The notes beneath the pieces are model-generated. The model had not been told where the DNA came from. It made no database searches and worked only from the letters and a program-made list of their open reading frames with translations. From Octopus vulgaris (lineage: Eukaryota): DNA of 64,000 bases. The DNA lies in the NCBI GenBank assembly GCA_951406725.2, contig OX597838.1, positions 36,890,001 to 36,954,000 of the forward strand, in the 5' to 3' direction. Positions 3,761 through 4,059 of the stretch are shown piece by piece. The translations under genes and the position numbers were made by a program. Each line of letters begins with the position of its first letter. Position 1 is the stretch's first letter.

Positions 3761-3761
<1 letters not shown>

Positions 3762-4059
3762 CGGAGTAAACACATAAATGTGAAACAAGGTGGAAAAAAG
3801 AGTACTCAAATACCAGTGGTAGAGTAATATGCTTTATTTTAAGCAGCAGAAAATTCAACAAAATCTGTTACTCTGAGTTTCTCGTTGCCGTTCATCAGAC
3901 AGTTTTTTCTAGCAAAAACTGTCTGATGAACGGCAACGAGAAACTCAGAGTAACAGATTTTGTTGAATTTTCTGCTGCTTAAAATAAAGCATATTACTCT
4001 ACCACTGGTATTTGAGTACTCTTTTTCCACCTTGTTTCACATTTATGTGTTTACTCCGG
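3761..4059. mobile_element. Palindromic (fold-back) element, family A, about 145-bp arms, hammerhead motif in each arm
   Basis: Near-perfect inverted repeat centred on ttttttCTAGCaaaaa and flanked by TA repeats; related copies at 39426-39653 and 46741-46873. Confidence 0.9.
3915..3961 (+). ncRNA. Minimal type-I hammerhead ribozyme motif (mirror copy on minus strand at about 3860-3906)
   Basis: ctgt-CTGATGA-a-cg(gcaa)cg-a-GAAA-ctc(a)gag-TA-acag: stem I ctgt/acag, GNRA-capped stem II, near-palindromic stem III, GUA cleavage triplet. Confidence 0.75.

Follow-up and report, generated by a model that had tools for sequence, protein, structure and literature searches.

The window analysed here is a 64,000-nucleotide stretch of Octopus vulgaris DNA. 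It contains three copies of a short repeat, referred to here as family A (Table 1). In two of the three copies, a 5′-truncated copy is joined head-to-head and inverted to a direct one, and a head-to-tail tandem arrangement was found in none (0/3). It was found that copy 1 (3761-4059) forms a 146-bp hairpin, the two arms of which differ only in the length of a T run (T6/T5). The minimum free energy of this hairpin is −255 kcal/mol, and none of 200 shuffled sequences folded as well. From the centre outward, each arm consists of a hammerhead motif and about 90 further nucleotides, and ends in (TA)n. In both palindromes, the centre is asymmetric, with the 6-nt loop TCTAGC and an identical T/C mismatch. 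Thus, the claim in the original prediction that copies 1 and 2 have the same centre holds down to the mismatch.

Table 1. Features of family A in the window
Feature	Positions	Strand	Basis
Copy 1 left arm, inverted, full length including the tail	3761..3907	-	Arm comparison
Copy 1 central loop TCTAGC, 6 nt (CTAG 3909-3912)	3908..3913	.	T3908/C3913 mismatch same in copy 2
Copy 1 right arm, direct; element 3′ end, then (TA)n	3914..4059	+	Arm comparison
Predicted type I hammerhead	3907..3967	+	Motif anatomy, constrained and free fold
Optional 65-nt tail, short end 3994 to long end 4059	3995..4059	+	Missing in copy 2 left arm; X1 contigs
Copy 2 inverted arm, short end, without tail	39420..39500	-	Arm comparison
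Copy 2 central loop, same as that of copy 1	39501..39506	.	Sequence comparison
Copy 2 direct arm, long end	39507..39653	+	Arm comparison
Copy 3, single arm without inversion, long end in (TA)n	about 46735..46872	+	Alignment to copies 1 and 2

The left arm of copy 2 ends 65 nt early, at an internal ATAT equivalent to position 3994. This short end is recurrent; in one public sequencing run (X1), 53 contigs pass into (TA)n behind 3994. The similarity of copy 3 to the other copies starts 3-6 nt downstream of the centre position, and there is no inverted arm. An 8-nt deletion takes out the CUGA core of copy 3, and its 3′ end is intact. TA repeats abut all five outer ends of copies 1-3 (5/5). Since the flanks are TA repeats, a target-site duplication cannot be delimited in the family A copies. 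BLAST and five fuzzy probes revealed no further family A copy in the window. A 31-nt core pattern had no match in metagenome, genome and viral collections. A 20-nt tail pattern matched 13 metagenome loci, all by chance over 21-29 nt, and had no match in genome or viral collections.

The predicted hammerhead has the core CUGANGA...GAAA...NUH with helices I and III. In copy 1, CUGAUGA (3923-3929) is followed by a weak helix II with a GCAA loop and then by GAAA. Helix III is palindromic (ACUC-A-GAGU), and GUA (3950-3952) puts the predicted cut at 3952/3953. An extended helix I runs from 3907 across the centre (TTC-TAGC) and pairs with 3953-3967. The turning point of the palindrome is the foot of this helix, 12.5 nt before CUGA and 42 nt before the predicted cut. 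All four palindrome arms have the motif, the core of copy 2 being CCGA, a U4C variant. Helix II consists of 2 bp and a mismatch in copies 1 and 2; the T allele of copy 3 makes it 3 bp. It has no G10.1-C11.1 closure. The reading frame from the ATG in the hammerhead core is just 17-29 codons long. Constrained to the active fold, the motif has −7.7 kcal/mol, which is above the minimum; the free fold, which prefers another pairing, has −12.4 kcal/mol. The Rfam hammerhead models gave no match at gathering score in the window, and there was no hammerhead among the 58 weak matches in 3880-4000. The Rfam miRNA matches in 3880-4000 were rejected as generic hairpin scores, all below gathering. Since the motif is not recognised by Rfam and its active fold is not the energetically preferred one, the ribozyme call is based on the anatomy of the motif and on the descriptions of minimal PLE hammerheads in the available text of PMC4209133. 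It had been predicted that a transcript gives a hammerhead-containing hairpin of about 145 bp. The folding analysis bears out the hairpin, but the hammerhead would not be presented on it: if the palindrome is transcribed as a whole, the antisense arm would precede the ribozyme and pair with it, and the hammerhead would be silenced.

Were the two arms of each copy made together? The arms were compared over the 81 nt common to all four arms of copies 1 and 2. Within a copy, the arms differ at no position in copy 1 and at five positions in copy 2; between the copies, there are 6-7 differences. Four of the four informative sites (3924, 3939, 3957, and 3981) group the arms by copy, and, the loop base apart, not a single site groups left arms with left arms. 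Three diagnostic differences had been reported to be mirrored in both arms, and so they are, with a fourth added here (3981 A/T). The four sites are common family polymorphisms, at 20-76% of summed depth in 4/4 runs. With the family allele shares of run X1, the chance that both second arms match at all four sites is p about 0.002 if the sites are independent, and up to 0.10 if they are fully linked. Since the arms group within copies at common polymorphic sites, they come from one subfamily per insertion. It is most likely that both arms of each copy were made together at insertion, as had been claimed. It does not follow that they were templated from one molecule, since the pattern would be no different with sibling RNAs of a single active source. 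The original prediction had also considered homogenisation of the arms by conversion within the hairpin. As an ongoing process, this is spoken against by the five unrepaired differences per 81 nt retained in copy 2. Per arm, these differences are similar in number to the two private changes in the unpaired 65-nt tail of copy 2, so ongoing conversion is disfavoured. The left arm of copy 2 has the family alleles 3927 C and 3934 G, and the right arm has neither. As a separate observation, copy 2 (39420-39653) has seven private changes, of which four are A>G when read on the + strand and not one is T>C; this hints weakly at RNA editing, the polarity of one site being unclear.

Is the centre fixed? 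Twenty of the 24 listed public runs contain at least half of the words of the stretch, and no RNA run containing these words was found among the listed runs. Contigs from four short-read runs (four studies) were mapped to 3560-4260, where depth means summed contig depth and not copy number. Position 3908 is covered in 4/4 runs at a summed depth of 10,431-35,208, which may include non-palindromic native sequence. The contigs covering the centre reach up to 16-31 letters beyond the 3908 variant. In contrast, any listed alternative joint has a depth of at most 252, and the canonical centre is about a hundredfold over any single one of them. I examined 15 of 300 joints, nine in the flanking SINE and six in the palindrome, and some joints in the runs went uncounted, so that the joint counts are lower bounds. 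One of the six (3851>3899, run X2) has the canonical centre and a left arm that is shortened; it was excluded from the count of alternative joints. The five other head-to-head joints have 1-2 contigs per run each, and one of them is present in 4/4 runs. A caveat is that, if a centre is afterwards lost by deletion, the resulting sequence is indistinguishable from a new turning point. The depth at 3908 is about 3% of the mid-arm depth in X1, and most family copies may not cross the canonical centre. Furthermore, 26-46% of the 3908 depth (23-32 contigs per run) reads G. This G probably represents a loop-free, fully symmetric centre, reversed mapping being an alternative. A fixed turning point just upstream of the ribozyme had been predicted. 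Its position 42 nt before the predicted cut is indeed non-random, but "fixed" is too strong in view of the five other joints and of copy 3, which has no inversion. The canonical centre is probably a hotspot, favoured but not fixed or obligatory.

In the twin-priming of L1, an inversion arises during insertion, possibly with both target ends priming, and non-overlapping parts are joined at variable points. In contrast, family A duplicates the same segment at a favoured point.

Self-comparison of the window lists many hairpins. It was revealed that five unrelated head-to-head families (38866-39188, 61658-62151, 43588-43910, 13893-14187, and 45191-45461) have a hammerhead-like core 19-71 nt from the centre. 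In 13893-14187 (family E), a 41-nt spacer (within 14014-14058) is native upstream sequence, common to a single copy at 46995-47099. The inverted arm of family E starts at a 4-nt CATC/GATG match, which is a fold-back-type junction. A turn of this kind, a small distance upstream of the ribozyme and at a short inverted match, is a general feature of the window rather than one peculiar to family A.

The reading that I favour, with moderate confidence, is that the family A palindromes are head-to-head element ends in TA repeats and that a Penelope-like reverse transcriptase made them at insertion, its first DNA strand stopping near the foot of helix I and re-priming on itself there. On the basis of the anatomy and the PLE literature, target-primed reverse transcription would start from the long end and proceed through the ribozyme. 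The cDNA would halt a few nucleotides past CTAG, probably at or near the RNA 5′ end. By pairing of a few bases, its 3′ end would fold back so that the 6-nt loop is left, and extension along the first arm would make the arms identical at the start. The new arm would then be connected with the remaining TA flank, either by its long end or by the internal ATAT; both are seen as ends. Afterwards the arms diverge freely, as they have in copy 2. RNA read through a palindrome already in place would bring along a ready stem at this spot, and the centre would tend to recreate itself.

Between the arms of copy 1 there are no substitutions, and the 5/81 of copy 2 are in line with the two private tail changes; both agree with arms that were identical when they formed. 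The tailed arm of copy 2 is on the side that fold-back makes first, although this is one informative copy, with a 50% probability by chance. The centre at the base of the extended helix I, together with a copy 3 that starts 3-6 nt away without inverting, also supports fold-back. Hairpin strength was considered as a sufficient cause of the centre and rejected. The native stem has a stability of +3.3 to +0.3 kcal/mol for 1-4 bp and −0.9 kcal/mol at 5 bp, and 42/71 stop positions offer a stem of at least 3 bp. The stem of read-through palindrome RNA reaches −5.5 kcal/mol by 8 bp. Since a native stem of 1-4 bp is unstable and so many stop positions offer a stem, the site is more likely set by the template end or by read-through RNA from palindromes. 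Further observations go against fold-back. The G fraction at 3908, with its probable symmetric centre, suits two strands annealing at CTAG better, and the left-arm alleles 3927 C and 3934 G of copy 2 are missing from its right arm. No RT-GIY-YIG ORF linked to family A was found in the window; the Pfam match in 1/16 window frames was an unrelated RVT_1.

The main rival reading, which I consider rather unlikely, is that both cut target ends primed reverse transcription, on sibling RNAs or on one RNA read twice, with a long and a short start, and that the cDNAs reached the same 5′ stop and annealed at CTAG. According to the available text of PMC11167929, the purified PLE protein of Anolis cuts both strands of the target and extends them; two reverse transcription start sites bound the tail, and the protein is a predicted dimer. 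The recurrence of the short end at 3994 in the 53 X1 contigs would agree with two such starts, but it is also explicable as microhomology joining at ATAT, and copy 1 has two long ends. The probable symmetric centre variant (26-46% of depth), the two family alleles private to the copy 2 left arm, and the joint 3866>3950, in which both arms begin at 3953 with a single base between, also speak for this reading. The orientation of the mismatch, on the other hand, favours fold-back, although copy 2 alone is informative here and the probability by chance is 50%. Family A is abundant and has an asymmetric loop base, two outer ends, and diagnostic arm sites, so that a count can separate fold-back from priming at both ends.

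A third reading is that the inversion occurred a single time and that palindromic masters have been copied whole since then, the arms being homogenised by DNA conversion or by strand exchange in copying. This would explain the identical asymmetric loop without a special stop site, and the X2 joint 3851>3899, with its canonical centre and shortened left arm, also fits. The A>G bias in copy 2 (4/7 private changes) is weak evidence in the same direction, such as editing of a hairpin RNA might leave. However, conversion lags behind, judging from the five differences that persist between the copy 2 arms. There are also other turning points and a copy with a single arm, and five unrelated families in the window share the layout with their own centres. 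I regard a single inherited inversion as improbable. A fold-back DNA transposon (MITE), with the arms as terminal inverted repeats and TA as the target duplication, is very improbable. Copy 1, with TA on either side of perfect inverted ends, would fit if taken alone. In copy 2 the ends are unequal, and copy 3 is a single arm whose 3′ end is intact, so that matching terminal inverted repeats are found in 1/3 copies only; every arm is a hammerhead-bearing unit. An assembly or library artefact might be suspected, since the copy 1 arms are identical save for a homopolymer and no listed contig spans the entire stretch. It is the least probable of these explanations: the copy 2 arms differ at five sites, the arms of other palindromes in the window are 72-90% alike, and the centre is covered in 4/4 runs from four studies.

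A second site was noticed at the predicted cut. In 3/5 alternative joints, one arm begins within 3952-3954, where the predicted 3′ cleavage product starts. Under random placement, such a coincidence has p = 0.005, 0.019, or 0.056, depending on the range assumed; the cut site was set beforehand by the motif, the 3-nt window was picked after the data, and the sample is five joints. One alternative joint is what would arise if a cDNA with its end at 3953 folded back across a loop of 5 nt. As a lead, the joints at the predicted cleavage site may hint at self-cleavage. Tentatively, and with more doubt than confidence, it may be proposed that palindrome centres record the starts of RNA templates, with a self-perpetuating main site at the helix I foot, re-templated by the palindromes, and another at the ribozyme cut. 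If true, this would be germ-line DNA evidence for in vivo cleavage by the minimal hammerheads of PLEs and for retrotransposition of the cleaved RNA, neither of which has been demonstrated for animal PLEs in the available text of the literature covered. In that of PMC11167929, no RNA reads ended at the cut, and cleavage was not needed in vitro. How PLE inverted ends are made and what PLE hammerheads do are open questions, as far as the available text of PMC8557442 and PMC11167929 goes. The family A junctions can show whether joints pile up at the cleavage site.

How does family A compare with known elements? In the available text of PMC8557442, inverted 5′ copies, optional tails, pLTR hammerheads, and TA targets are standard for EN+ PLEs. 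The inverted pLTRs of EN+ PLEs (Penelope/Poseidon, Neptune, and Hydra; PMC8557442 and PMC3846280, available text) resemble family A in the head-to-head 5′ copy, the tail, the hammerhead, the TA targets, and the junction palindrome. In contrast to them, family A is seen as a terminal repeat only, with no ORF. Its tail is 65 nt in length versus 30-40 in EN+ PLEs, and both arms of copy 1 are tailed. The junction of family A lies at the base of helix I, which is not stated in the available text of these two papers. Short palindromes at the inverted junctions of PLEs were interpreted as self-priming in 2013, and the available text of PMC3846280 sets this self-priming on an antisense template, which fold-back of the cDNA would mimic. 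Thus, of the predicted programmed fold-back step in place of random 5′ inversion, the non-random turning point stands, but the idea is not new, since self-priming had already been proposed. The structure of family A itself is ordinary PLE debris. The new details are the centre at the foot of the extended helix I and, as a lead, the 3/5 alternative joints that start at the predicted cut (p 0.005-0.06, small sample). A search by title and start of abstract, outside most of the subscription literature, revealed no publication mapping PLE inversion centres relative to helix I or to the cut. Three family A motifs were absent from one text supplement of PMC8557442, the sequence supplements of which could contain family A.

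According to the available text of PMC4209133, the minimal type I hammerheads of metazoan PLEs share with family A the core boxes and a palindromic helix III suited to dimers, and Schistosoma has hammerhead pairs on opposite strands, 100-700 bp apart. In contrast to these minimal hammerheads, family A has a very short helix II, a long helix I, and two cores 25 nt apart. The animal non-LTR retrozymes (available text of PMC7229834 and bioRxiv 10.64898/2026.07.22.740005; for context, see also that of PMC6962438 and PMC3681739) are, like family A, short, abundant, apparently non-coding, and PLE-related, with a type I hammerhead. However, these sources define retrozymes by head-to-tail tandem monomers and circular RNA, and 0/3 family A copies in the window are tandem. 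Family A works like a PLE end and may be a non-autonomous or retrozyme-type derivative.

Other palindromes and repeats were noted in the window. A sixth palindrome (11476-11621) has arms of about 70 nt and no ribozyme core, and is possibly a 3′ fragment of another family. In 38866-39188, the centre appears, by eye, to be at the base of an extended helix I. The hammerhead-like core of 43588-43910 has a long helix II, and its helix III, ACTCAGAGT, is the same as that of family A. Long non-palindromic spacers with a central TATATA lie at 61860-61950, 43700-43790, and 45290-45360; they may contain a TATA box or reflect two insertions in one TA site. In 46735-47099, family A copy 3 and the single copy of family E stand tail-to-tail around one TA repeat. 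A 773-codon stop-free frame at 121-2442 (- strand) has an RVT_1 match (E 4.6e-32) and a weak PHD match; it is probably a LINE and is not linked to family A. A SINE-like repeat about 430 nt long, which contains a microsatellite, is very abundant; it is found at 4069-4692, 8084-8998, and about 20 other places, where some neighbours are inverted. A long tandem array of 9-15-nt units with a strong GC skew occupies about 22100-23600.
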